Shown piece after piece: positions 12,178 through 24,797 of a DNA stretch of 64,000 nt. A program made the position numbers and the translations under genes. The stretch spans positions 134,354 to 198,353 of the forward strand of contig JAOUOD010000007.1 in the NCBI GenBank assembly GCA_029880545.1, read 5' to 3'. Below the pieces are notes generated by a model that saw nothing but the letters and a program-made list of their open reading frames with translations, did no database searches and had not been told where the DNA came from. The stretch comes from Gammaproteobacteria bacterium. GTDB taxonomy: Bacteria; Pseudomonadota; Gammaproteobacteria; Acidiferrobacterales; SZUA-150. How positions within the stretch are numbered: the stretch's first letter is position 1; every line of letters begins with the position of its first letter.

Positions 12178-12642
12178 TCAGGATCTGAAGATTTGTTTCG
12201 GCCCCCGCGGTTGTTTATTTGACCACTGTTCTTCGTAATCACCCTGGCTGAATTCATCAATAATGCGACGCCAGAAATGCTGTGCGGGCAGGTTCAGTTC
12301 CTGCTGGGCGATATGCCATTCGCCCGGAAACATGCGAAATAGTTGATGGGCGACTGCCCGGCCAGCACCACGTTTTCGGCAGCTTCTCACGATAAAGAAC
12401 TCGGCGATGGAGTAGCAGTCCGGACCCAGTTCCCGCACCAGCGCAAAGCCGGCAACCTTGCCGTTGATCAGCACGGTAAAGGGATGGCGGTCGGTATCCG
12501 TCCAGTAGCAATCGAAATACGGGTCCGTGCCAAAACGCCCCGAGTCATCCGGCATGGCGTCATCGAAGATACTCAAGTCATGGCGATACAATTCCACCAG
12601 GTTCCGCAGTACATGTTTTTTCGCTTCCGGGGTGATCTGCAC
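12178..12642 (-). CDS. GNAT family N-acetyltransferase
   Basis: 154 aa. FFIVRSCRKRGAGRAVAHQLF is a GNAT motif A (R/Q-x-x-G-x-G/A). Confidence 0.8.
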   Translation of the reverse strand: MQITPEAKKHVLRNLVELYRHDLSIFDDAMPDDSGRFGTDPYFDCYWTDTDRHPFTVLINGKVAGFALVRELGPDCYSIAEFFIVRSCRKRGAGRAVAHQLFRMFPGEWHIAQQELNLPAQHFWRRIIDEFSQGDYEEQWSNKQPRGPKQIFRS

Positions 12643-12897
12643 GTCGATGTTTATGGCATATTCCTTCCGGCTTTGCAGCTGCCCGGGTAACCGATATTCG
12701 CGATTTTCCGGTTCGGCATTGTAGCGGAAATAACCTACCCTGTGTGGCGACCAAAGGGTGACGAGCCTGGGTCACAGGATAAGTTGTCGCGTATCGAACG
12801 TTTGCCCGATGCATTCGGATGCCGAGCAAGGCAATCTCTCGATGGTTGCTGCACTATTGCAGCGGCACTGATCGTTCACCCGGGGATTGCTGCAGCC

Positions 12898-14148
12898 ATG
12901 ACGACCCTGAAACTTTTCCTGGCGATTCTCCTGGCCGTATTTGGGCAACTGGCTGTATTTGGCCTGGTGTTGCTGGTACGGCGCTGGCAGGTGTACCGTC
13001 AGCTGAAGCAGCAATGCTATGGCGCGGTTCCTGCTGCGACACTGGTATCAACAACGTCCTGGCAGGACTGGCGACCCCTGCGCGTGCAACGCAAGGTTTT
13101 TGAGGATGCGGCGCATTCAGTTTGTTCGTTCTATCTCGAGCCGGCAGATGACTATTCCTTGCCCGCCTATCGACCGGGGCAGTACCTGACCTTCCGGTTT
13201 TCCGTTGCTGTTCCGGCTGCAGGCTCTGTTGCAACTGAGATGCGCCCGGCCATACGCTGCTATTCGCTTTCTGACAAACCTGGTCAGCGCTACTACCGAA
13301 TCACGGTAAAGAAAGTTCAGCCCGCCGGCCTGGTGTCCGGCCATTTACACGACCAGGTCAGTGAAGGCGACATGCTCGAGGTAAAATCCCCGGCCGGGCA
13401 CTTTTACTGGTCACCGGAAGTGGAGGAGCCCATTGTGTTGATTGCAGGCGGCATTGGTATTACGCCGGTATTAAGCATGTTGTATTCGCTGCTGGAACAT
13501 GATCCGGATCATGAAACCTGGTTTTTTTATGGCGTGCGTAATGGTGCGGAGCACTTGTTCAAGTCGGAATTGCAGGATCTGGCTGTATCCCATCCCAGCC
13601 TGAAACTGAAAGTATGTTACAGCCGCGCTGATGAGACCGATGTGCGTGACCGGGATTATCAATTTGACGGGCGGGTGGACATCAGCTTGTTGCGCCAGGT
13701 GCTGCCACTGAAGTCATTCCGATTTTATATCTGTGGGCCGAAAGCAATGATGGAAAGCCTGGTGCCGGCCCTGGAAAGTTGGGGTGTGCCTGATCATCAA
13801 GTGCATTACGAGGCCTTTGGCCCGGCCACGATTAATCGACCATCCTCTACCCGGAGTATTGCCAGCAGTGTTGCTGCTGAAAAGGCCGGAAAAGCCCTGA
13901 CTGTCCGCTTCAGTCAATCCGGCAAGCTGGTGCAATGGGATGACCGTTATTCCAGCTTGCTTGAGTTGGCGGAGCGCAATGGCATCAAGCCGGATTTTGG
14001 TTGCCGTGCAGGAAGTTGTGGCAGTTGCCAGACAGTTATCGAATCCGGAGAAGTGCATTACAACCAGGAGCCTGATGCCGATGTACCGGCAGGCGCCTGC
14101 CTGTTATGCATCAGTCGACCGGAAACCGACCTGACGCTGGCGGGGTAG
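12898..14148 (+). CDS. membrane-anchored FNR-type FAD/NAD(P)H oxidoreductase with C-terminal 2Fe-2S ferredoxin domain
   Basis: Track ORF 12742..14148. The likely start is the ATG at 12898 (MTTLKLFLAILLAVFGQLAVFGLVLLV, one TM helix, then RRWQVYRQLK). Motifs are RCYSLSD (RxYS FAD motif), GGIGITPVLSM, FYICGP, and CRAGSCGSCQT...CLLC (plant-type 2Fe-2S). Confidence 0.85.
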   Translation: MTTLKLFLAILLAVFGQLAVFGLVLLVRRWQVYRQLKQQCYGAVPAATLVSTTSWQDWRPLRVQRKVFEDAAHSVCSFYLEPADDYSLPAYRPGQYLTFRFSVAVPAAGSVATEMRPAIRCYSLSDKPGQRYYRITVKKVQPAGLVSGHLHDQVSEGDMLEVKSPAGHFYWSPEVEEPIVLIAGGIGITPVLSMLYSLLEHDPDHETWFFYGVRNGAEHLFKSELQDLAVSHPSLKLKVCYSRADETDVRDRDYQFDGRVDISLLRQVLPLKSFRFYICGPKAMMESLVPALESWGVPDHQVHYEAFGPATINRPSSTRSIASSVAAEKAGKALTVRFSQSGKLVQWDDRYSSLLELAERNGIKPDFGCRAGSCGSCQTVIESGEVHYNQEPDADVPAGACLLCISRPETDLTLAG

Positions 14149-14152
14149 CAAC

Positions 14153-14731
14153 ATGATGCGCTCACTGATGCTTCGCGAAGTGCTGCCGTTCCTGTTCATG
14201 CTGAGCATGCTGTTTGTCGGTATTATCGCAGTTGATCAATTGTTGCATGTGCTGGACCTGGTCTGGGTGGGACGCTACCTGGGGATTCCAGGGGTGTTGC
14301 TGATCCTGTTGGCGTTTATGTATTCGTTGCGAAAACGACGCATCATAACGCTTGGCAAGGCATCATCATGGTTGCGCGCACACGAAGCCATGACCTGGAC
14401 CGGCTCATTGCTCATCCTGGTACATGCCGGCGTGCATTTCAACGCAGTACTGCCGTGGCTGGCAACCCTGGTCATGACCGTCAATGTCATCAGCGGTCTT
14501 GTTGGCAAGTTTCTTCTTGATCGTTCGCGACGCGAGCTGGAGGCCAGGAAGAGTGCGATGACAGGTCGTGGCATGAGTGAAGCGGATATTGAGCGCACGC
14601 TGTTCTGGGACGCGGTAACGCTCGAGCTGATGAAAAAATGGCGCGCCGTGCATTTCCCCATCACCCTGGCATTTGTGGTACTGGCGCTGGGTCACATCAT
14701 CAGTATCTTTCTGTTCTGGCAGTGGCGCTGA
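14153..14731 (+). CDS. His-rich ~4-TM membrane protein (possible haem-b relay)
   Basis: 192 aa, starting 4 nt after the upstream stop. It has about four hydrophobic segments. His residues lie in or next to these segments (LLHVLD, LVHAGVHF, AVHFPI, LGHIIS). Confidence 0.7.
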   Translation: MMRSLMLREVLPFLFMLSMLFVGIIAVDQLLHVLDLVWVGRYLGIPGVLLILLAFMYSLRKRRIITLGKASSWLRAHEAMTWTGSLLILVHAGVHFNAVLPWLATLVMTVNVISGLVGKFLLDRSRRELEARKSAMTGRGMSEADIERTLFWDAVTLELMKKWRAVHFPITLAFVVLALGHIISIFLFWQWR

Positions 14732-15753
14732 TGAAACCGGTAACCATAATTATCTGGCTCAATCTTGCTGCCATCGCGGTACTGGTGATGGTGTACCCGC
14801 AGTTGATGATCAGTCCCGGCGCATTGCTGGAGGGCCATGCTGATTTGACCGGGGACTGTTTTGCCTGTCATACACCGTTTCTGCGCAGCGCCCCGGAAAA
14901 CTGCATCGCCTGCCACAAGCTTGACGACATTGGTATACGGACAACGACAGGCAAAAAGATTGAGAAAAAACCAGGACAGGTACCGTTTCACCAGCGGCTG
15001 ATGGAATCGGATTGCGTTGCCTGTCACAGTGATCACCAGGGCGTGAAAGTGTATCGCTTGATCCACCGGTTCTCGCATGACCTGTTAAAGGAATCGGGAC
15101 GTGAGCAATGCAAGGCCTGTCATGACAAGCCCGATGATACCTTGCATCAGCCAATTACCATGAACTGTAATGCCTGCCATGAAACCGGAAAGTGGACACC
15201 GGCGGCATTTGATCATAACCGTTATTTCACGCAATCAGGGAGCCGTGATTGCCTGGATTGCCATAAACCGTATGATGATCGCCTGCACCGAAACAGTCGC
15301 GCTGCCTGTGACAGTTGCCACACTACACGCGAATGGGTGCCGGCAAAGTTTGATCATCGAAGTTACTTCAGTGCTACCAATGACAGGCTGTGTTCCGGTT
15401 GTCATGCCACGCTTGACGACAGGCTTCATCGTCAATTACGGGGAAGCTGCGACAGTTGTCATACTATCGAGGCATGGAAGCCGGCGACGTTCGACCACGA
15501 CGACTACTTCCGGTTTGACCGGCACCATGATACGGAGTGTGAAACCTGTCATACGGGTCACGATTACAGTAAATACACATGTTATGGCTGTCATGAGCAC
15601 AGTCCTGCCGGGGTGAGGGAGGAGCACATGGAGGAGGGTATTCGTGATTTTAGCCAGTGTACAGAATGTCATCGTAGTGGCGATGAGCATGAAGCGGAGC
15701 GAATCTGGAAGCAGAAGCGCGGCTTGTCCTCCGGAACAAAGTACGATGACTGA
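14731..15753 (+). CDS. dodecahaem c-type cytochrome (cytochrome c3-like family), N-terminally anchored
   Basis: The ATG at 14731 overlaps the upstream stop (TGATG). The N-terminal hydrophobic segment is VTIIIWLNLAAIAVLVMVY. There are 12 CXXCH motifs: CFACH, CIACH, CVACH, CKACH, CNACH, CLDCH, CDSCH, CSGCH, CDSCH, CETCH, CYGCH, CTECH. Confidence 0.9.
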   Translation: MKPVTIIIWLNLAAIAVLVMVYPQLMISPGALLEGHADLTGDCFACHTPFLRSAPENCIACHKLDDIGIRTTTGKKIEKKPGQVPFHQRLMESDCVACHSDHQGVKVYRLIHRFSHDLLKESGREQCKACHDKPDDTLHQPITMNCNACHETGKWTPAAFDHNRYFTQSGSRDCLDCHKPYDDRLHRNSRAACDSCHTTREWVPAKFDHRSYFSATNDRLCSGCHATLDDRLHRQLRGSCDSCHTIEAWKPATFDHDDYFRFDRHHDTECETCHTGHDYSKYTCYGCHEHSPAGVREEHMEEGIRDFSQCTECHRSGDEHEAERIWKQKRGLSSGTKYDD

Positions 15754-15797: not shown

Positions 15798-16253
15798 TTA
15801 CCACTCAATAGTGATGACTATTTGATCATTGAACAGGCCCGGTATCGCTTTTTGTTCTGCCGGGATGATCCCGTAGACAGTGTGACGATTGATCATCTGG
15901 CCACTGACGCCGGACATGGCTGTGCTTCCGGATGTACCATCACCCCAGATACGTGTTCCGGCGGCATCCTGGTACAGGTTGTAGCGAAGAGTATCCTTGT
16001 CGCTCTTTAATGTGCGATTAAACCCGTTTGCGAACAGGCCGGCATCAAGTGATATGTTATAGGGAATACCGGGTACGTCACAGCTGACATTTATGAATGT
16101 AGTGGTGCGTAGTGGTGTCGGGCTTAATATGTCATAACTGCCAAAGCGGACCGGGGCGATGGCCATGTCGCAGTCCTGGGCCATGACGTTGGCAGCAAGG
16201 ATTGCCGGTAACAGTGCGATCAGGTTATTGTGCTTCACAGTACACCTCGTCAA
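15798..16253 (-). CDS. spore coat U (SCPU) domain pilus subunit, distal gene of the cluster
   Basis: 151 aa with a signal peptide. The end ...LFNDQIVITIEW and LRYNLYQDAAGTRIWGDG are typical of SCPU/Csu subunits. The gene overlaps the usher 3' end by 29 nt. Confidence 0.8.
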   Translation of the reverse strand: MTRCTVKHNNLIALLPAILAANVMAQDCDMAIAPVRFGSYDILSPTPLRTTTFINVSCDVPGIPYNISLDAGLFANGFNRTLKSDKDTLRYNLYQDAAGTRIWGDGTSGSTAMSGVSGQMINRHTVYGIIPAEQKAIPGLFNDQIVITIEW

Positions 16254-18576
16254 GATAGACCATCATTTCCTCTGATTCCGGAATGGCAAGCGAAAACCGG
16301 CATTCCCTGTTCTTGCTGTATAACCTGGCCTTGTATGTTCCAGGCGCAAGGTTCTCCATGTAGAACTCGCCACCCTTGCCAAGAATCGTTCGAATTACAG
16401 ACTGGTGAAGCGACAATTCAAGACCCCAGTATTCAGCCGGGGTTCGGCTCGCGCCTGAAAGTACATATGCGTGTCCTGTAAACCCCTGGATACGATTGAT
16501 AAAAAACGGTGCAATACCACCACCCCGGTATGGAACAAATACGTGTTGCTTGAGATTCTTGATGCTGTAATTGACCGGAATATCCCTGTCATTTATGGAA
16601 ATTTCGTTATGGTAGTAGGATATCAGCCCCGGTACGATGGCTTCGCCATCACGATTGGTAACAGCAACCGGCTGATTATTGTGCTTGATTCCAACACCGG
16701 GCAGTTTGCCTACGCGTACAAGGGCGAAGCTGTCGAGGATGGGGCGGCTAAGGTACAGTGATGAGTTGATCAGGGAAATGGCGCCGGCGATTCCGGCTTC
16801 ATGCCGTTTTTGCAGACCATCATCCTGGTAGCGCGCATTATATTCTGCGTGGCTGCCATGGTAGAACAGTTGTGCATTGTATTTATCCAGGCGATCCTGT
16901 TCCTCATCATCCAGGCGGTTGGCGCTGAGCCGGTAACCGATCCCGCTTCCCAGTGGCGTATTTTGATTTAGGTGTATTGCCCTGGCCCGGTTGCCTTCAG
17001 TTGACCCGTACTGCACTGCCCCGGTTTTTCCCGTGCCCAGGGAAAGAGTCAGGCCGGCGAATATTCCCCTTTCTATATCCGTAGACCGGGTTCGGGTGCT
17101 GCGCAGATGAAAAGACAATGATTTCGACAGCTTGCGTGTATAGAACACGGTCGTACGTGTGAAATCCTCGTCAATGTGCCGATCAACCGTGCCGCGGGTA
17201 ATGGCAATAGACCCGAGTGTGTCATTCCTGTAGCCAATCCCGATCAGTTTCTCCATGCGCGAACGGTCCCGGTTTTCATCCAGGCTTAACGTGACGTATT
17301 GCCGTGACATGCCCTTGGCAAACATCCTGAGACTCAGATTGTCATGAAACAGGCTGACACCCAGCGAAGCGGCCTGCCCGGAGCTATCTTCCTTGTCACT
17401 GATTGCCAGAGAGATGTCTGTTTCACCGGAGCTGCCAAGGAGAAACTTTGCATCAATGCCGACATTCACAATATCCCGATCGACTTCTGTTCGAAAGCCC
17501 GAGGTGAAGCGGTCTGAAATACCTGTGCGATGAAACGCAACAATGGCCGGGTCAGTGTATGTGGAATCTTCGTCACCAAAGTGCACACGCTTGTAGCCGA
17601 TATTGTAAGAGTATTCGTGAACCCCGGACTTGAGAAGACTGTAGGATGTATAGAAGGGTTCAGTGATAACGTGTTCACGGCCAAAGACATCACGAATCAC
17701 GATTGTGATTTCACCGGAACCGGCAGAGTTGGGTGGATTGACGAACTCAAATTCACCGGGAAGCAAATGCTCCCGTTTCATAAGCAACCCGTTTATATAC
17801 AGCTCGACTTCTGATGGCATTTTCAGGATTCCGGAAATACCCAGTTCCGGAGACTTGACGAAGTAAGGGTCAATTGAAAAATGTTTTGAAATACTCAGGC
17901 CACCGTACAAACCGCCGCCACCCAGTGCCCCTGAGTACGCACTGAAATCACCGAGAATAATTCGCCGCAGTTTGCCCGGGTTATCACGGGTAGCGTGGGT
18001 CATCAGTCTTATGGACTGGGTATCGTGTTCATTTTTCGCATGAAGGAATCCTGAATACAGAAATACGTTATCGAGATGTATGCCGATCTCCCAGGGCAGG
18101 GATGTGGCGGGCGCCATTCCTTCCTGCCCCAGGCTCTGAAAGCTGTAATTCAGAAACGCGCTGTTGTCATGTGTCTCGACAGGATTCAATTGCCTGGTAT
18201 GGGTGAGATTGATGGTCTGTTTTTTGAATAGACCGGGTTTCGCCGATAAAATCAGGATTGCCTGCTTATTATCGATTGAGTATGTCAGCTCTGGATGCAG
18301 CGAATCAAGAGCAACCAGGCCCTGCCGGTTTTCCTGTAACCCGGGCGGCAGGTTTTCTATACCAATCTGGCCAAACAGGTCCCGGGAAAAGGAAACCTTG
18401 CCCTTGTCACTGATGTCAAAAAAGTGTTCTCCCTTGTCGGTGGAGTTTAGCTGAATTTTCATCACCACGGTGTCCGCCAAAACAGGAACAGCAGGAAGCA
18501 TGGTCATCAAAAGCACATATGCAATGTTCGCCCACAGCTGAACAGTTATCCTGTGTATGGCTGTGTGGGGATACAT
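16225..18576 (-). CDS. fimbrial outer-membrane usher (CsuD-like)
   Basis: 783 aa. Its size, beta-rich composition and position between the chaperone and SCPU genes fit an usher. The exact start is uncertain. Confidence 0.8.
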   Translation of the reverse strand: MYPHTAIHRITVQLWANIAYVLLMTMLPAVPVLADTVVMKIQLNSTDKGEHFFDISDKGKVSFSRDLFGQIGIENLPPGLQENRQGLVALDSLHPELTYSIDNKQAILILSAKPGLFKKQTINLTHTRQLNPVETHDNSAFLNYSFQSLGQEGMAPATSLPWEIGIHLDNVFLYSGFLHAKNEHDTQSIRLMTHATRDNPGKLRRIILGDFSAYSGALGGGGLYGGLSISKHFSIDPYFVKSPELGISGILKMPSEVELYINGLLMKREHLLPGEFEFVNPPNSAGSGEITIVIRDVFGREHVITEPFYTSYSLLKSGVHEYSYNIGYKRVHFGDEDSTYTDPAIVAFHRTGISDRFTSGFRTEVDRDIVNVGIDAKFLLGSSGETDISLAISDKEDSSGQAASLGVSLFHDNLSLRMFAKGMSRQYVTLSLDENRDRSRMEKLIGIGYRNDTLGSIAITRGTVDRHIDEDFTRTTVFYTRKLSKSLSFHLRSTRTRSTDIERGIFAGLTLSLGTGKTGAVQYGSTEGNRARAIHLNQNTPLGSGIGYRLSANRLDDEEQDRLDKYNAQLFYHGSHAEYNARYQDDGLQKRHEAGIAGAISLINSSLYLSRPILDSFALVRVGKLPGVGIKHNNQPVAVTNRDGEAIVPGLISYYHNEISINDRDIPVNYSIKNLKQHVFVPYRGGGIAPFFINRIQGFTGHAYVLSGASRTPAEYWGLELSLHQSVIRTILGKGGEFYMENLAPGTYKARLYSKNRECRFSLAIPESEEMMVYLDEVYCEAQ

Positions 18577-18609
18577 GTCAGGAGACTCGCCGGCAATGTT
18601 ATGTTCGCA

Positions 18610-19515
18610 TCACCCTCCCGGTGTACTGGCGGTGGCCGGGTCGTGCTGCGGATCGACAGGAGCCGGGCTGATCGAAGGGGGTTTGGGCTTGACGGGGTGC
18701 GCCGGGATGGTCAAGTGTCCTCCTGGCGAGGCGATTGATGGTTTAATGGTCTTCCGTGCCGGCCAGCGACATTGTTCCGTACCGGGCATATTGACGCTAG
18801 CTTCAAGTTTTTGATCACCAGCTTCAACAGATGTCTTGATTAGCTTGCTCTTGCCGCATTGCTGTTCAGGCACCATGACGGCAAAGCTTCGGGTCTTGCC
18901 GGGCAGAACATACCAGCCTCGACCAACTGTCTCAAACATGCTCGATTGGCTGGCGTCCATGCCAGTCAGACGGATGTCACCTACTATAAAATGTGCAGTA
19001 CCGGTGTTTTGGACTGAAACCCTGACTGCGCCATCGGAAAGTGTGGTGCTGACCAGTGATGCCTCAGGCGCAGCGCCCCTTGCTTTTATGAAAACCGGGA
19101 CACCTATCTGCAGCGCCAGGATTAGTCTTGCTCCTTTTTCCGGGGCATCGTTTACCGGCAGTTCCGTCAGAAACAGGCGATATGAAGTTTCGACTTCCTG
19201 GTCCCTTTGTCCCTGGAATCCTACCCGTATTACCTGTTCTGAATGCTCTGCGATTGTAACGATCCTGGGAAAGAACAGGATGTCGCGGGTGTCCTCGTAA
19301 ATATCCTCCCCGGTCTTGTCCTGCAACCATTTTCTGGCGTTAACCTGTATTGTCACTGGACGATCTTCATTGTTGATTATTGTCAATATCGATGTTCGGG
19401 CATCGTTATCAAAAAACAGTCGTAGTGGCAGTACGCGGAAGGAGCCGGAGTGGACAGGAACGGAGATTGTCAATCCGATAAGGACTGTAGCGGCTATCAG
19501 GAGTGTTTTTTGCAT
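18610..19515 (-). CDS. periplasmic pilus chaperone (PapD/CsuC-like) with Pro-rich C-terminal tail
   Basis: 301 aa with a signal peptide. The chaperone hallmarks are RVLPLRLFF, RLFLTELP and LALQIGVPVFIK. The last ~60 aa are Pro-rich (PAHPVKPKPPSISPAPVDPQHDP). Confidence 0.8.
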   Translation of the reverse strand: MQKTLLIAATVLIGLTISVPVHSGSFRVLPLRLFFDNDARTSILTIINNEDRPVTIQVNARKWLQDKTGEDIYEDTRDILFFPRIVTIAEHSEQVIRVGFQGQRDQEVETSYRLFLTELPVNDAPEKGARLILALQIGVPVFIKARGAAPEASLVSTTLSDGAVRVSVQNTGTAHFIVGDIRLTGMDASQSSMFETVGRGWYVLPGKTRSFAVMVPEQQCGKSKLIKTSVEAGDQKLEASVNMPGTEQCRWPARKTIKPSIASPGGHLTIPAHPVKPKPPSISPAPVDPQHDPATASTPGG

Positions 19516-19601
19516 GGCTGCCCCCGTTATTATTCATTGTTCATGACTGCAGCCTGTGCAGAGTCTCTCTGCACAGGCCCTGGGTTACAGATTGTCAATG
19601 G

Positions 19602-20111
19602 CTAGTAGTGAACAGAAACCGTTACAGTGTCCTGATAGAAACCGGGAACCTGCATTGGCAGGAAGCTGTAGTTACTGTAGCCATAGACGATGCGAAGTTC
19701 ATCCACTCCTGTGCCAACACCGGCAATACTCGTACCTTTCGTGGTGGCTGCAAAATCCTGGTCACCCCAGAAGTCATTCCAGGTGCCGATCTTGTGCAGA
19801 CCGTAGATGATCAGATTGCCCAGGCCGTCGCCCATGCGGCGCTCCAGGGCATTGCTCACGTTCAACCCTCCATCCATGGCAATGTTGTAGGCAACCGTGG
19901 GTGAACAGGTCACTCTTATTGAGCCTTCAGCGGTGTTGACGGAATTGGTATGGATTCCGAAATCGACCGGGGTAGTGGATACAAGGCACAATGGCTCGAC
20001 CGTGGCACTAACATCAAGTGAGCCGGTGGCCGTTCCGGCTTGTGCCGGTCCGATCAGCGCCACGCCTGTCAAGGCGACGGCGCCGGTAAACAGATGTTTG
20101 GTTAATTTCAT
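19602..20111 (-). CDS. SCPU domain major pilin (CsuA/B-like)
   Basis: 169 aa. The signal peptide is ...LIGPAQA. GSLDVSATVEPLC and the terminal ...YQDTVTVSVHY are typical of the SCPU family. It is the first gene of the cluster. Confidence 0.8.
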   Translation of the reverse strand: MKLTKHLFTGAVALTGVALIGPAQAGTATGSLDVSATVEPLCLVSTTPVDFGIHTNSVNTAEGSIRVTCSPTVAYNIAMDGGLNVSNALERRMGDGLGNLIIYGLHKIGTWNDFWGDQDFAATTKGTSIAGVGTGVDELRIVYGYSNYSFLPMQVPGFYQDTVTVSVHY

Positions 20112-20327
20112 GTTGATCTCCTTGTCAAATAGGCATTGAGCATCCGGGTAGTCCCCCGCCTGGCGACAGCTGTCCTGAATTGATTCGTCGGAGGATGCGG
20201 TAATGCTACATGACCGGGAGTTACAGATTGGTTACCGATATCGGTGCGCGTTATTGTGATTCAGCGAATGAATAACAATCATCCAGGGGCAATAATCCGG
20301 TTATTCCTGGTAACGAATACGCTGTTT

Positions 20328-21365
20328 TCATGAAATACGATTAAATGATTTCTGTTTCGTGCCGGTGTTTCTGCATCGGAAGCAGAATTCATCCGCTTTT
20401 CCGGTATCGCCCCTGCGGAAACTGTCATAGAGTGCTCGCAGCTCCCGGGAAGGCGAAACTCCCAGGACCGTGAAAAGCGTTTCACGACAACGATGAAATA
20501 CTGCCAGCGCTTTTGCCCTGTCCCCGTTTCCCGCGTAACATAACATGAGTCCACGATACAACGATTCCGCCAGCCCGTCTGTTTCAAGTGCCGTCTCATA
20601 CGTGATGATCGATTGCTCGCAATTTCCCGTGTATCGATAGTAACGACCGAGAGCGTGCAATGCCCTGATATACTTGCTCCTGAGTCTTTCCCGCATCAAC
20701 AGGTCCCATGCCTGCGGTTCCTCAACCCCGAGGAACGGGCCTTTGTATAACTTGATGGCGCGTTCGAGCCTGTTAGCGACGTTCCAGTCGGAATGTTCTG
20801 TATTGAGGTTGATTGTATCTCCAATCAGGCGCTCAAATTGCCAACTGTCAATCCAGCAGAATTCCGGGCTCAGCGACAGTTTTGCATCACGGTGTTCAAG
20901 TGCGTTGATCTTGCGGAGCAGTTTCCTGAGCCGATGTAATGTTGTCGCGAGCGCCCTGTGCGCTGCGTCTCCGTCATGACCCGGCCACAGGGCATCCGAA
21001 AGGTGGGCTTCGCCCACTTCCCGGCCACCAAAAGCGACAAGTGCTTTCAACAGTTCCAGGGGTTTTTTCTTGGACTTGGTTGTGAAGTGAACCGGTTGAT
21101 TGTTCAGAACAAGAGAAAATCGTCCCAGGGTATAGATTCGAACATCAAATCCCGAGCCACTGTCAACATTCTTCGGGGGATCGTAATCATGAGTCAGTAC
21201 CGGTGCGAGCTTGCGATTACCGGTCAGCGGGAGACCCAAAATGACGATTTCATCGCCCGGGATGTACCTGGATTCCGGTGAGCCGTTTTTGCAGTGCTTG
21301 CGTTTTAGGGATCGTGTGGCCGAATGTCCCGGTCGGTGAGTATAATGCAAATGCGATTCAGTCAT
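20328..21365 (-). CDS. transcriptional regulator with winged-helix (OmpR/PhoB-type) DNA-binding domain and BTAD (SARP-like)
   Basis: 345 aa. RIYTLGRFSLVLNNQPV...KKPLELLKALVAFGG...HRALATTLHRLRKLL is the winged-helix part. LYKGPFLGVEEPQAWDLLMRERLRSKY is the BTAD part. The N-terminal ~75 aa are unassigned. Confidence 0.75.
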   Translation of the reverse strand: MTESHLHYTHRPGHSATRSLKRKHCKNGSPESRYIPGDEIVILGLPLTGNRKLAPVLTHDYDPPKNVDSGSGFDVRIYTLGRFSLVLNNQPVHFTTKSKKKPLELLKALVAFGGREVGEAHLSDALWPGHDGDAAHRALATTLHRLRKLLRKINALEHRDAKLSLSPEFCWIDSWQFERLIGDTINLNTEHSDWNVANRLERAIKLYKGPFLGVEEPQAWDLLMRERLRSKYIRALHALGRYYRYTGNCEQSIITYETALETDGLAESLYRGLMLCYAGNGDRAKALAVFHRCRETLFTVLGVSPSRELRALYDSFRRGDTGKADEFCFRCRNTGTKQKSFNRIS

Positions 21366-23669: not shown

Positions 23670-24797
23670 ATGTTTTTCCGTGTTGTTCCGATGCTGTCCT
23701 TGGCAGTAACGATTTTTACTCCATTGTTCACGGCACAGGCTGCCGATCTGACACCGATCCAGGCGCTCGGCAAACAACTGTTTTTTGATGCGCGACTGTC
23801 ATCGCCGGCAGGGCAATCATGTGCTCACTGCCATTCGCCGCAGCATGGTTTCAGCGATCCCCGCTCAGATCGGTTGCCGGTATCTGAAGGCGTGCGCCCG
23901 GGACGATTTACGCCGCGCAACGCACCGACTGTGACTTACCTCGCGCGGGCGCCGGAGTTTCACTTCGACAAGAAACAAGCGCTGCATCGGGGCGGGTTCT
24001 TTATGGATGGCCGAGCCGCCACGCTGGAGCAGCAGGTGCTGGGTCCCGTGATGAGCCCGGTCGAAATGGCCAATACCGGCAAGGCCGATATCGTCAATCG
24101 ACTCAACAATTCCGGTTATACCAGTCAATTTCGCCACGTATTTGGCACGGAGGTATTGAGCCAGGAGCAAAGCGGAATTGATGCCCTGGCCCTGGCGTTG
24201 GCGGCATATGTTCGCAGTACCGAGCTAAACAGTTTCAGTTCAAAATATGATGCCTATCTCGCCGGCCAGGTCAGGCTGACCCAGCAGGAGCTTCGCGGGC
24301 TGAGATTGTTTGAGGATGAAAAGAAGGGTAATTGCGCCGCTTGTCATCCGAGCCGGCCGGACAATGGCGCGGCACCGCTGTTCACGGATTTCAGTTACGA
24401 CAATCTTGGTGTGCCGGCCAACCCTGCGAGCCCGTTCTATACCCAGGATCCGCAGTTTAATGCCGATGGTAAACGCTATATTGATACCGGGCTGGGCAAG
24501 ATCCTCAACGATGCTACCGGCAATGGCAAATTCAAGGTGCCAACGTTGCGAAATATTGCCCTGACTGCACCCTACATGCATAACGGTGTGTTCGGTTCCT
24601 TGCGCGAAGTAGTGGAGTTTTATAATGCACGCGATGTCAGTAGCAAATGGGCCGCAGCGGAAGTCAGGCGGAACATAAACAAGGATGAGCTGGGTGACCT
24701 GGGGCTGACCGACCAGGAGATAGATGACATTGTTGCGTTCATGAAAACACTGACTGACGGCTACAGCGCCGTTTCCCCTGTGAAATGTTGCGAGTAA
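23670..24797 (+). CDS. di-haem cytochrome c peroxidase (CCP/MauG family)
   Basis: 375 aa with a signal peptide. Motifs are LFFDARLSSPAGQSCAHCH, RNAPTVTY, GNCAACH, KVPTLRNI and YMHNGV. Confidence 0.9.
   Translation: MFFRVVPMLSLAVTIFTPLFTAQAADLTPIQALGKQLFFDARLSSPAGQSCAHCHSPQHGFSDPRSDRLPVSEGVRPGRFTPRNAPTVTYLARAPEFHFDKKQALHRGGFFMDGRAATLEQQVLGPVMSPVEMANTGKADIVNRLNNSGYTSQFRHVFGTEVLSQEQSGIDALALALAAYVRSTELNSFSSKYDAYLAGQVRLTQQELRGLRLFEDEKKGNCAACHPSRPDNGAAPLFTDFSYDNLGVPANPASPFYTQDPQFNADGKRYIDTGLGKILNDATGNGKFKVPTLRNIALTAPYMHNGVFGSLREVVEFYNARDVSSKWAAAEVRRNINKDELGDLGLTDQEIDDIVAFMKTLTDGYSAVSPVKCCE

Follow-up and report, generated by a model that had tools for sequence, protein, structure and literature searches.

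The route that carries electrons from the cytoplasm across the inner membrane to periplasmic multihaem cytochromes is, to our knowledge, known only for quinol-linked enzymes (such as CymA, ImcH and CbcL), of which CbcL joins a b-type membrane domain to c haems. A transmembrane path that starts from cytoplasmic NAD(P)H is found in NOX and the ferric reductases and in the Fre-MsrQ-MsrP chain, where electrons pass to the outside through a flavin and then two b haems, whose ligands are histidine pairs of the third and fifth transmembrane (TM) helices.

Clusters that combine a small inner-membrane protein (IMP), a redox protein and a multihaem cytochrome c (MHC) have been catalogued, with no function given, by He et al. 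2017 (Front Microbiol 8:1584, PMC5566968; section 'Other multiheme cytochrome c' and Supplementary Table 6) in Gallionella ES-2, Dechloromonas agitata is5 and Leptothrix cholodnii SP-6. In these clusters the IMP is 192 aa long and has two HX13H motifs and five TM helices, the redox protein has 412-425 aa, the MHC has 8-10 haems in 247-288 aa, and there is no porin. The authors considered the clusters 'less likely involved in EET' and guessed the IMP to be quinone-active; their main text leaves the redox protein undescribed and spells out no NAD(P)H-driven path. The IMPs of the candidate porin-cytochrome c complexes (PCC) PCC3 and PCC4, which the same authors draw as inward conduits, are larger (270-300 aa), likewise with five TM helices, and carry W-x3-H-x13-H on TM3 and TM5 and SGxxG on TM4; over their whole length they do not significantly resemble the proteins of 192 aa (He et al. 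2017, PMC5566968).

In the window, the whole 64,000-nucleotide stretch of DNA analysed here, three co-directional genes form a cluster of this type (Table 1). Re-reading the sequence confirmed the coordinates, the 4-nt gap and the TGATG overlap given in the initial annotation, as well as the flanking GNAT gene and convergent pilus cluster. Gene 2 and gene 1 match the lengths in Table S6 (192 and 416 aa), the redox gene lies 4 nt upstream of gene 2, the multihaem gene overlaps its end, and gene 2 has the five TM helices and the two HX13H motifs on TM3 and TM5 that define the 192-aa IMP class; the window differs in having 12 haems in 340 aa versus 8-10. The module is therefore not unrecorded, its copy in the window being a 12-haem member of the cluster type of He et al. 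2017, and the earlier remark that no system of this composition has been characterised holds with the qualification that the cluster type was already listed (PMC5566968). Gene 2 also carries the SGxxG on TM4 and the W-x3-H of the PCC3/PCC4 IMPs, but those clusters include a porin, several more cytochromes and a cNMP-binding 4Fe-4S protein. No porin gene adjoins the three genes in the window, where the sole nearby outer-membrane barrel, the pilus usher, is encoded on the opposite strand, and membership of a porin-cytochrome complex (Mtr/Mto, PCC3, PCC4) was rejected on this ground. On balance, we regard it as probable that the three genes make up a single operon, which encodes an inner-membrane chain of three subunits for electron export.

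Table 1. Features of the three-gene locus and its flanks, in window positions.
Feature	Position	Strand	Remark
GNAT gene (flank)	12178-12642	minus	
Gene 1	12898-14148	+	putative NAD(P)H-FAD reductase, membrane-anchored; plant-type [2Fe-2S] ferredoxin domain at the C-terminus; 416 aa; TAG stop 14146-14148
Gene 1 TM anchor	12922-12978	+	aa 9-27; Kyte-Doolittle 2.67; RRWQVYRQLK next
Gene 1 FAD/NAD(P)H motifs	13255-13740	+	RCYS aa 120-123, GGIGITP aa 184-190, CGP aa 279-281
Gene 1 2Fe-2S ligands	14002-14109	+	C369-x4-C374-x2-C377...C404
Gene 1/gene 2 spacer	14149-14152	+	4 nt, 'caac'
Gene 2	14153-14731	+	five-TM inner-membrane protein, putative di-haem b relay, 192 aa; ATG at 14153, TGA at 14729-14731
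Gene 2 TM3 pair H77-x13-H91	14381-14425	+	H77 invariant, H91 at least 90% conserved
Gene 2 TM4 SGLVG (SGxxG)	14492-14506	+	S114, G115 at least 90% conserved
Gene 2 TM5 W163-x3-H167-x13-H181	14639-14695	+	W163, H167 invariant; H181 at least 90% conserved
Gene 2/gene 3 TGATG overlap	14729-14733	+	stop/start; gene 3 ATG at 14731-14733
Gene 3	14731-15753	+	dodecahaem cytochrome c
Gene 3 hydrophobic anchor	14740-14796	+	aa 4-22; Kyte-Doolittle 2.48
Gene 3 tandem dihaem modules	15109-15531	+	three of 47 aa (141 nt), aa 127-267; from protein alignment and DNA repeats
Gene 3 C-terminal Asp-Asp	15745-15750	+	Asp run typical of family tails
SCPU/usher/PapD pilus cluster (convergent flank)	15798-20111	minus	

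The gene 1 product exceeds the Pfam gathering cut-offs for FAD_binding_6 (25.9 bits against 21.1; E 1.3e-5), NAD_binding_1 (78.4 against 22; E 7.8e-22) and Fer2 (41.0 against 21; E 1.9e-10), and these profiles together with the cofactor motifs identify it as an FNR-like flavoprotein with a plant-type ferredoxin domain, bearing out the initial description of one TM helix, an FNR-type FAD/NAD(P)H module and a plant-type 2Fe-2S motif. GenBank starts the gene at GTG 12742 (468 aa); the N-termini of homologues favour ATG 12898 (416 aa). Among 49 trio-linked homologues, RCYS, GGIGITP and CGP are kept in 46-49, the 2Fe-2S ligand motif in all and the TM anchor in 48, with K/R enriched on the C-terminal side of the helix (4.2 in the 15 residues after it versus 0.3 before). 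Because the anchor is followed by this K/R-rich stretch, the catalytic part is placed in the cytoplasm and not in the periplasm, in agreement with the topology first proposed.

Among PDB entries gene 1 is closest to flavohaemoprotein 1cqx, through its reductase module (E 8e-48); the FAD/NAD module of Hmp/FHP, the nearest relative of that of gene 1, natively reduces a b haem. The corresponding NCBIfam profile, NF009805, aligns through its reductase part (profile positions 149-396) to aa 53-311 with 254 bits, below its cut-off of 432. Gene 1 is thus not an Hmp: in place of the globin domain, which it lacks, it carries a TM anchor and, at the C-terminus, a 2Fe-2S domain. NqrF of Na+-NQR is likewise TM-anchored, combines a 2Fe-2S ferredoxin with an FAD/NADH module and feeds membrane-embedded carriers, but its order is TM-Fer2-FAD-NAD versus TM-FAD-NAD-Fer2 in gene 1, its similarity is weak (PDB matches at E 1e-12 to 1e-7), and the partner subunits of Nqr are absent here.

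For gene 2, the AF2 model (pLDDT 93; helices 2-33, 44-61, 70-92, 99-137 and 158-187) and the charge distribution indicate five TM helices, replacing the approximately four hydrophobic segments of the initial annotation. The protein contains W-x3-H-x13-H twice and one SGxxG (S114-G115-x-x-G118). In an alignment of 39 relatives, down to 23% identity, H77, H91, H167 and H181 are either invariant or conserved to 90% or more; W73 occurs in the window's protein but is not a conserved residue of the family. The expectation of conserved histidines within the membrane was therefore upheld by the four residues on TM3 and TM5 with their HX13H spacing, although the histidines originally singled out in or beside the membrane segments included two that are not conserved (H32 in LLHVLD and H95, the second in LVHAGVHF) and omitted the conserved H77 (RAHEAM). 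Judged by the K/R-rich loops 59-76 and 121-165, H77 and H167 lie towards the cytoplasm, whereas H91 and H181 lie towards the periplasm, an arrangement in which the histidines appear placed to hold two haems, presumably of b type. As a di-haem relay, the 192-aa protein would be among the smallest transmembrane ones.

The fold itself stands apart from known families. Gene 2 has no match in NCBIfam, or in Pfam to E up to 1, including the ferric-reductase-like models that had been suggested for it; its alignment found nothing in the PDB with hmmsearch and reached a probability of 0.7% in hhalign against a Ferric_reduct protein from locus L001, and Foldseek matched the model to the solved ferric-reductase-domain (FRD) fold, the NOX5 TM domain, only at E 2.4. 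Neither sequence nor fold thus places gene 2 in the ferric reductase superfamily (PF01794; NOX, FRE, MsrQ), and no relation to any solved haem protein was detectable by either. What gene 2 does share with the FRD proteins is the position and spacing of the bis-His pairs, 12-13 residues apart on TM3 and TM5; such pairs on two TM helices are the classical way in which cytochrome b and ferric-reductase domains hold two haems (Zhang et al. 2013, as cited by He et al. 2017).

The 340-aa gene 3 product contains exactly 12 CXXCH motifs, one haem per 26.5 aa, and an N-terminal hydrophobic anchor, as annotated. Its 17 further histidines suffice for bis-His ligation of all 12 haems. Scores above the Pfam cut-offs for Cytochrom_c3_2 (59.9 bits versus 25), Cytochrom_CIII, Cytochrome_C7 and Paired_CXXCH_1, together with the CXXCH motifs and these histidines, assign it to the class III/c7-type multihaem cytochromes c. 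The anchor is conserved in all homologues and is followed by a P-x-L-M-x-x-P-G motif. The internal repeats noted earlier are real, but their unit, present in three copies, is 47 aa and not ~44 aa, with the consensus CxxCH-x7-LH-x(6-7)-CxxCH-x4-W-x-PA-x-FDH-xxYF and DNA repeats 141 nt apart at 65-71% identity. Eight-haem relatives have one such module, ten-haem relatives two and the window's 12-haem copy three; across the family the haem count ranges from 8 to 17. The C-terminal residue is Asp in 116 of the best 120 homologues.

The order and strand of genes 1, 2 and 3 are kept, with minimal or overlapping gaps, in most of 57 genomic loci and in 19 metagenomic loci, a recurrence that makes the trio more than chance and that, by spanning Gamma- and Betaproteobacteria, bears out its expected co-localisation in related genomes. 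Hosts include Chromatiaceae, Thiodiazotropha (animal symbionts), Sedimenticola, Thiohalomonas, Noviherbaspirillum and the giant sulfur bacteria (Thiomargarita), and the gene family extends to iron oxidisers and magnetotactic bacteria; most hosts of the module are sulfur- and iron-oxidising autotrophs. Gene 1 is not adjacent at five close loci among the 57 (L029, L032, L035, L059 and L062) and is missing from divergent gene 2-gene 3 pairs. The pair is the universal core, and its occurrence without gene 1 means that the membrane protein must accept electrons from another source as well. Across 81 loci no terminal enzyme or acceptor is conserved beside the module, which extends the earlier observation that none is encoded next to the trio; cytochrome b561 genes are frequent neighbours.

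Related combinations occur elsewhere. TM-anchored paralogues of gene 1 (39-46% identical to the window's protein) are found in PCC4-like clusters, which also encode a 270-aa five-TM W-x3-H-x13-H/SGxxG protein and multihaem cytochromes, and other cytoplasmic redox proteins, 4Fe-4S proteins included, pair with the same kind of membrane protein and a cytochrome; such varied cytoplasmic partners fit a relay between cytoplasm and periplasm. One example, the nonahaem cluster of Ferrigenium straubiae (bioRxiv 10.64898/2026.01.22.701106, section 6.3.2), corresponds to the 9-haem, 308-aa and about 800-aa rows of Table S6 of He et al. 2017 and likewise joins an anchored multihaem cytochrome, a five-TM protein outside any family and a cytoplasmic Fe-S protein, but the latter is a 4Fe-4S protein and not an FNR-ferredoxin, and the cytochrome has a cytosolic FHA domain. 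The preprint does not identify the five-TM protein as one that binds haem.

From these features we infer the following path. Gene 1, at the cytoplasmic face on its single TM helix, would oxidise NAD(P)H on FAD and pass single electrons to its own [2Fe-2S] domain, from which they would enter gene 2 at a cytoplasmic-side b haem (ligands H77 and H167), cross the membrane to a periplasmic-side b haem (H91 and H181) and move on to the bis-His c haems of gene 3. The cytochrome, tethered beside gene 2 by its uncleaved N-terminal helix, would serve as a wire, longer or shorter according to how many 47-aa dihaem modules it has, and candidate acceptors are soluble periplasmic cytochromes (the DHC/DUF1924/cytochrome b561 set), a di-haem cytochrome c peroxidase or a metal that the poly-Asp tail binds. 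Flow should be outward, because that direction is downhill in redox potential from NAD(P)H (-320 mV) and is aided by the membrane potential; by established bioenergetics, electron transfer in the opposite sense, towards the negative side of a membrane, is paid for from the membrane potential.

The histidine conservation, the co-localisation and the topology all support this path, which the initial annotation had outlined from NAD(P)H through FAD, 2Fe-2S and two b haems to a c-haem wire. Electron export is further supported by the kept gene order with minimal or overlapping gaps, by the conserved HX13H pairs on parallel TM3 and TM5 in a confident AF2 model, by the motifs and anchor of gene 1 with a flavin module nearest to a natively b-haem-reducing flavohaemoprotein, by the second, independent association of gene 1 paralogues in PCC4-like clusters, and by the haem density and spare histidines of gene 3. 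It is weakened by the loci that miss gene 1, by the lack of a solved haem-protein relative of gene 2 and by the lack of a conserved acceptor nearby. In this proposal the three subunits would contact one another and the chain would work independently of quinone. In its full form the proposal is more tentative, though plausible: a quinone-independent, NOX-like chain may spend cytoplasmic NAD(P)H to charge an adjustable periplasmic wire (8 to 17 haems, added in dihaem modules), with the poly-Asp tail docking a metal ion or a basic redox partner and the same relay principle operating in PCC3/PCC4. Such a chain would follow the logic of the NOX/ferric reductase and Fre-MsrQ-MsrP systems, resembling the latter in having its flavin reductase as a separate polypeptide, but with five TM helices in place of six, an extra 2Fe-2S step and a multihaem c wire as output instead of O2, an Fe(III) chelate or a molybdoenzyme.

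Less probable, though deserving weight, is that gene 2 is a quinone-reactive di-haem cytochrome b, so that genes 2 and 3 form a quinol:multihaem-cytochrome oxidoreductase functionally like CymA, NapC or CbcL; gene 1 would then just contribute an input without pumping, either NAD(P)H:quinone or NAD(P)H:haem. A quinol donor would account for the gene 2-gene 3 core occurring without gene 1 in divergent and some close lineages and for the b561 genes that often adjoin it, and a quinone link was favoured for this IMP class by He et al. 2017; yet no quinone-site motif was found in gene 2, nor any homology with the quinone-reactive cytochromes b that are known, its translation in the window's clade is coupled to that of a dedicated anchored reductase, and the different cytoplasmic Fe-S protein that replaces gene 1 elsewhere would be needless with quinol as the donor. 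CymA/NapC/NrfH, CbcL and ImcH resemble the module in tethering a multihaem c domain to the inner membrane to serve periplasmic partners, but their electrons come from the quinol pool and not from an NAD(P)H reductase subunit, which they lack, and no sequence relation of gene 2 or gene 3 to them was detected. The lack of a protein-family or solved-structure match for gene 2 would also suit a non-redox scaffold or anchor, an idea raised in the Ferrigenium preprint for the five-TM neighbour of the nonahaem cytochrome (bioRxiv 10.64898/2026.01.22.701106), or a metal-binding or transport protein, with gene 1 serving an unrelated membrane enzyme; this is made improbable by the HX13H pairs on the parallel helices TM3 and TM5, whose four histidines are invariant or nearly so and follow the classical bis-haem pattern, and by a gene 1 linkage that recurs in two different cluster architectures. 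About as improbable is inward uptake from periplasmic or extracellular donors such as Fe(II), reduced sulfur or cathodes through the cytochrome and gene 2 to gene 1 as a ferredoxin:NAD(P)+ reductase supplying CO2 fixation, which would suit the mostly sulfur- and iron-oxidising autotrophic hosts and the inward direction drawn for PCC3/PCC4, but which would pay the cost in membrane potential on top of the uphill step to -320 mV in an operon that has no ion-translocating or bifurcating subunit.

Direct NAD(P)H input into such a chain, if correct, would constitute a new kind of module for feeding electrons into periplasmic and extracellular transfer and a bacterial counterpart of NOX assembled from separate parts, and would give sulfur- and iron-oxidising bacteria an NAD(P)H-powered periplasmic reductant, for example for peroxide removal, reduction of Fe(III) or stored sulfur, or redox balancing. 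As a small putative di-haem relay, gene 2 is attractive for structural work and engineering, and since the same type of membrane protein occurs in PCC3 and PCC4, which have been proposed for iron oxidation, solving the three-gene version would aid their interpretation. The gene 2 family is very common, its homologues forming 4192 clusters at 90% identity.

Alignment of 39 full-length relatives of gene 2 (alignment A1), the 192-residue membrane protein of the three-gene redox module, with identity down to 23%, revealed that His77, His167, Trp163, Gly44, Gly47, Tyr57 and Gly84 are invariant, and that His91, His181, Lys61, Arg164, Ser114 and Gly115 are at least 90% conserved. The conserved histidines constitute two HX13H pairs located inside the membrane, in TM3 and TM5. 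The initial annotation had counted about four hydrophobic segments bearing histidines in or beside them; a confident AF2 model (pLDDT 93) instead contains five long helices (residues 2-33, 44-61, 70-92, 99-137 and 158-187). Among the histidines then listed, His91, His167 and His181 are conserved in A1, but His32 and His95 are not and are thereby ruled out as haem ligands, and His77 had been overlooked. The Lys/Arg-rich segments of the protein (the N-terminus, 59-76 and 121-165), together with the placement of an acidic loop (28-40), argue for an N-in, C-out topology, so that TM3 and TM5 run parallel. Given this topology, His77 and His167 lie near the cytoplasmic face and His91 and His181 near the periplasmic face, which is the geometry predicted for two stacked bis-His b haems.

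Gene 2 is proposed to work like the haem core of the NOX/ferric reductases, yet every homology test available fails. Pfam and NCBIfam returned no usable match to gene 2, and its family profile matched none of the PDB sequences by hmmsearch at E up to 10. Aligned by hhalign with the Ferric_reduct/FAD_binding_8 protein of the Thiohalomonas denitrificans locus L001, the profile gave a probability of 0.7%, and a Foldseek search of the PDB with the confident model yielded nothing below E 0.7, the top matches being BAR domains and helical bundles. The family itself is large: homologues fall into 4192 clusters at E<1e-3, and 814 relatives emerged when 1.8 billion representatives were searched exhaustively. 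A typical homologue has 192 residues and ~60% identity, all carry the label "hypothetical", and hosts include Thiohalomonas, Thioalbus, Sedimenticola, Thiodiazotropha, Parabeggiatoa/Thiomargarita, Chromatiaceae, Gallionellaceae and Noviherbaspirillum. One homologue, P0122 (252 aa), carries a 60-residue N-terminal extension resembling the TM anchor and Arg-rich linker of gene 1; this resembles the outcome of losing the reductase domains and joining the anchor to gene 2, but could also be an assembly artefact.

Gene 1 encodes the FNR-type flavin module and 2Fe-2S domain expected of it, with Pfam FAD_binding_6, NAD_binding_1 and Fer2 all above gathering scores and the motifs RCYS, GGIGITP, CGP and C-x4-C-x2-C...C present. 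The flavin module is closest to the reductase half of flavohaemoproteins (NCBIfam NF009805, 254 bits over profile positions 149-396; PDB 1cqx, E 8e-48). Membership in the flavohaemoprotein (Hmp) family is ruled out because the globin domain is missing, and the score lies below the cut-off. Of 49 homologues that belong to a trio, 46-49 keep the motifs for FAD, NAD and 2Fe-2S, and 48 have a hydrophobic N-terminal helix; the 15 residues past this helix contain 4.2 Lys/Arg, versus 0.3 ahead of it. This concentration of basic residues C-terminal to the helix bears out the cytoplasmic placement of the catalytic domains proposed initially. The GenBank entry for gene 1 (MDH5633295.1, 468 aa) begins at a GTG at 12742, 52 codons 5' of the ATG at 12898; the latter, just before the TM helix, is the start in other sources and in all homologues, and the GenBank start is probably over-extended (window 12742-12897).

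Gene 3 has exactly the 12 CXXCH motifs originally counted. Eight haems are the family core, found in 56 of 64 genomic relatives, which rules out "dodecahaem" as a family trait. Internal repeats are present as first described, with a unit of 47 rather than ~44 residues: the window protein contains three tandem 47-residue dihaem modules (aa 127-267, window 15109-15531, 141-nt spacing), eight-haem proteins contain one and ten-haem proteins two. Haem counts among the best 120 matches are mostly even (8, 10, 12, 14 or 16), with a few of 9, 11, 13 or 17; haem number thus shifts mostly in steps of two, through gain or loss of this module. The three copies share no more than 65-71% DNA identity, which marks the expansion as old. 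Besides its 12 proximal histidines the protein has 17 more, and its 26.5 residues per haem lie within the range that He et al. 2017 (PMC5566968) tie to haem wires. The N-terminal hydrophobic helix and a downstream P-x-L-M-x-x-P-G...H motif are conserved, and because no obvious cleavage site follows the helix, gene 3 is likely membrane-tethered. The C-terminal residue is Asp in 116 of the best 120 matches, often as a run of 3-20 Asp (also in homologues in L001-L062 and P0305-P0423), and the window protein ends in ...GTKYDD (15700-15753); this could be a metal-binding or docking tail. No PDB sequence relative of gene 3 was found, and its weak AF2 model (pLDDT 68.5) gave no Foldseek match.

The ORF listing and a direct reading of the junctions agree with the initial description of three co-directional genes, with a 4-nt gap (caac, 14149-14152) between genes 1 and 2 and a TGATG stop/start overlap (14729-14733) between genes 2 and 3.

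Coordinates of the redox module, neighbouring window features and related clusters (window positions unless a locus is named)
Feature	Position	Strand	Remark
Gene 1	12898-14148	+	ORF listing
Gene 2	14153-14731	+	ORF listing
Gene 3	14731-15753	+	ORF listing
SCPU-type chaperone-usher pilus cluster	15798-21365	-	complete
Di-haem cytochrome c peroxidase (CCP_MauG + cytochrome c domain)	23670-24797	+	8 kb downstream of module
Secreted protein, 924 aa	55580-58354	+	two CXXCH motifs
PCC4-like cluster	L104:3890-9238		TM-anchored gene 1 paralogue
PCC4-like cluster	L105:3782-9069		TM-anchored gene 1 paralogue
PCC4-like cluster	L136:3779-8840		TM-anchored gene 1 paralogue
PepSY, NOX-like and cytochrome b561 genes	L001:4068-6712		Thiohalomonas denitrificans, directly before module

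Three isolate genomes contain the trio in identical order. Scanning a single genome for each species yielded 57 loci, and BLAST comparison of their ORFs showed genes 1, 2 and 3 co-directional and in this order in most of them. In five loci (L029, L032, L035, L059 and L062, the last with only a partial gene 2 match) genes 2 and 3 follow unrelated upstream genes (SMC/ZipA/LigA and others), and the L061 contig stops inside gene 2 and so says nothing on gene 1. Conversely, when metagenome contigs were scanned with gene 1, a copy matching at the N-terminus turned up in 19 loci; each of the 19 has gene 2 immediately downstream, and gene 3 too where the contig reaches. Co-occurrence of the three genes, which the initial annotation had proposed to check, is therefore upheld in both the genomic and the metagenomic loci. 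The module is present two or three times in some genomes: in L024 two copies stand in tandem with a cytochrome b561 gene between them, and L008, L011 and L062 all belong to one MAG, MFD09779.bin.2.196. In seven loci (L013, L014 and L038-L042) a small hydrophobic protein (~94-109 aa) is encoded just after gene 3; it is missing from the window.

Cytochrome clusters of this kind have been catalogued before. He et al. 2017 (PMC5566968) described five-TM inner-membrane proteins of the PCC3/PCC4 porin-cytochrome c clusters that bear W-x3-H-x13-H on both TM3 and TM5, and SGxxG on TM4, likened them to cytochrome b and the ferric-reductase domain, and proposed that they bind two b haems and connect with quinone; gene 2 has all the listed features of this class. 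The same paper ("Other multiheme cytochrome c" and Suppl. Table 6) lists porin-less clusters from Gallionella ES-2, Dechloromonas agitata and Leptothrix cholodnii that combine a multihaem cytochrome c, a 192-residue five-TM HX13H protein and a 412-425-residue "redox protein", and judges them "less likely" in EET (PMC5566968). The window's module is of this cluster type, a 12-haem member of a type catalogued in 2017 and never characterised. A 2026 Ferrigenium preprint (bioRxiv 10.64898/2026.01.22.701106) contains a 9-haem/five-TM/4Fe-4S variant of unknown function, whose membrane protein was not recognised as a haem protein. Our literature search found no experimental work on this module, no characterised NAD(P)H-multihaem system and no follow-up on PCC4.

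The composition of the module, its conserved cofactor motifs, its topology signals and its conserved linkage are established here, and we regard the assignment of cofactors and topology as highly probable. Electrons would pass from NAD(P)H to FAD and [2Fe-2S] in gene 1 at the cytoplasmic face, then to a haem b at His77/His167 and a second at His91/His181 of gene 2, and from there to the c haems of gene 3. This mechanistic reading, offered initially, is the best supported one, and the finding is real. Established bioenergetics argues for the outward direction: electrons leaving NAD(P)H (-320 mV) run redox-downhill with help from the membrane potential; reducing NAD(P)+ by inward transfer would mean working against the redox gap and the membrane potential alike, and the operon encodes no energy-coupling subunit. 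Interpretation of the module as a porin-cytochrome complex is ruled out, as there is no porin gene. Electron exchange between gene 2 and quinone is the main competing explanation, consistent with the gene 2-gene 3 pairs that stand without gene 1. Among divergent gene 2 relatives (23-38% identity), a multihaem cytochrome gene is always immediately downstream and gene 1 never present, which makes the gene 2-gene 3 pair the core and gene 1 an accessory of the window's clade. Quinone exchange agrees less well with the varied cytoplasmic redox proteins (FNR-ferredoxin, 4Fe-4S proteins) attached to this type of membrane protein, and we lean towards a quinone-independent path from NAD(P)H to the periplasm.

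Gene 1-like genes without genes 2 and 3 downstream still have the N-terminal TM anchor. Three loci with such anchored paralogues (L104, L105 and L136) encode a cNMP-binding 4Fe-4S protein (PF13247, 570-580 aa) and a 270-residue membrane protein with W-x3-H-x13-H twice, to which SGxxG is added in L104 and L136. A tetrahaem c554-like cytochrome is found in the L104 and L136 clusters, and the L105 cluster continues with another multihaem cytochrome, Cys-rich at its N-terminus. These clusters match the published description of PCC4 subgroup II; no porin was seen in the stretches covered. Two architectures thus tie an anchored NAD(P)H reductase to an HX13H membrane protein and multihaem cytochromes, and NAD(P)H may also feed, or be fed by, PCC4-like candidate conduits. 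In L001, PepSY, NOX-like Ferric_reduct/FAD_binding_8 and cytochrome b561 genes directly precede the module, so that two different cytoplasm-to-periplasm haem systems adjoin. PepSY and cytochrome b561 likewise directly precede the gene 1-less pair in L067.

Beyond the trio, no neighbour recurs in more than ~1/5 of the loci, which rules out a conserved terminal enzyme beside the module, and since no neighbour is conserved enough, no acceptor can be named; confidence in any specific one is low. The neighbours loosely suggest redox or oxidative-stress chemistry in the periplasm: a DUF1924/di-haem cytochrome DHC/cytochrome b561 set adjoins the module in ~7 independent loci, a di-haem cytochrome c peroxidase in 4 of 81, and OmpR-type two-component systems in about a dozen. 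Peroxidase genes lie 1-5 kb from the module in L004/L051, L015, L025 and L062. Scanning the surroundings of the operon for promoters and terminators gave results no better than chance, and consensus boxes for FNR/CRP, Fur, NsrR and OxyR showed no enrichment over shuffles upstream of gene 1 in 43 loci, with none in the window.

The flanks are those first reported, a GNAT gene on one side and a convergent SCPU/usher/PapD pilus cluster on the other, whose nearest gene lies 44 nt past gene 3. This cluster comprises two SCPU subunits, an usher and a PapD-like chaperone, with a BTAD/OmpR-family activator gene upstream. Elsewhere in the window, the 924-residue secreted protein shows beta-propeller matches (lactonase, NHL) and is possibly a haem-containing propeller enzyme.
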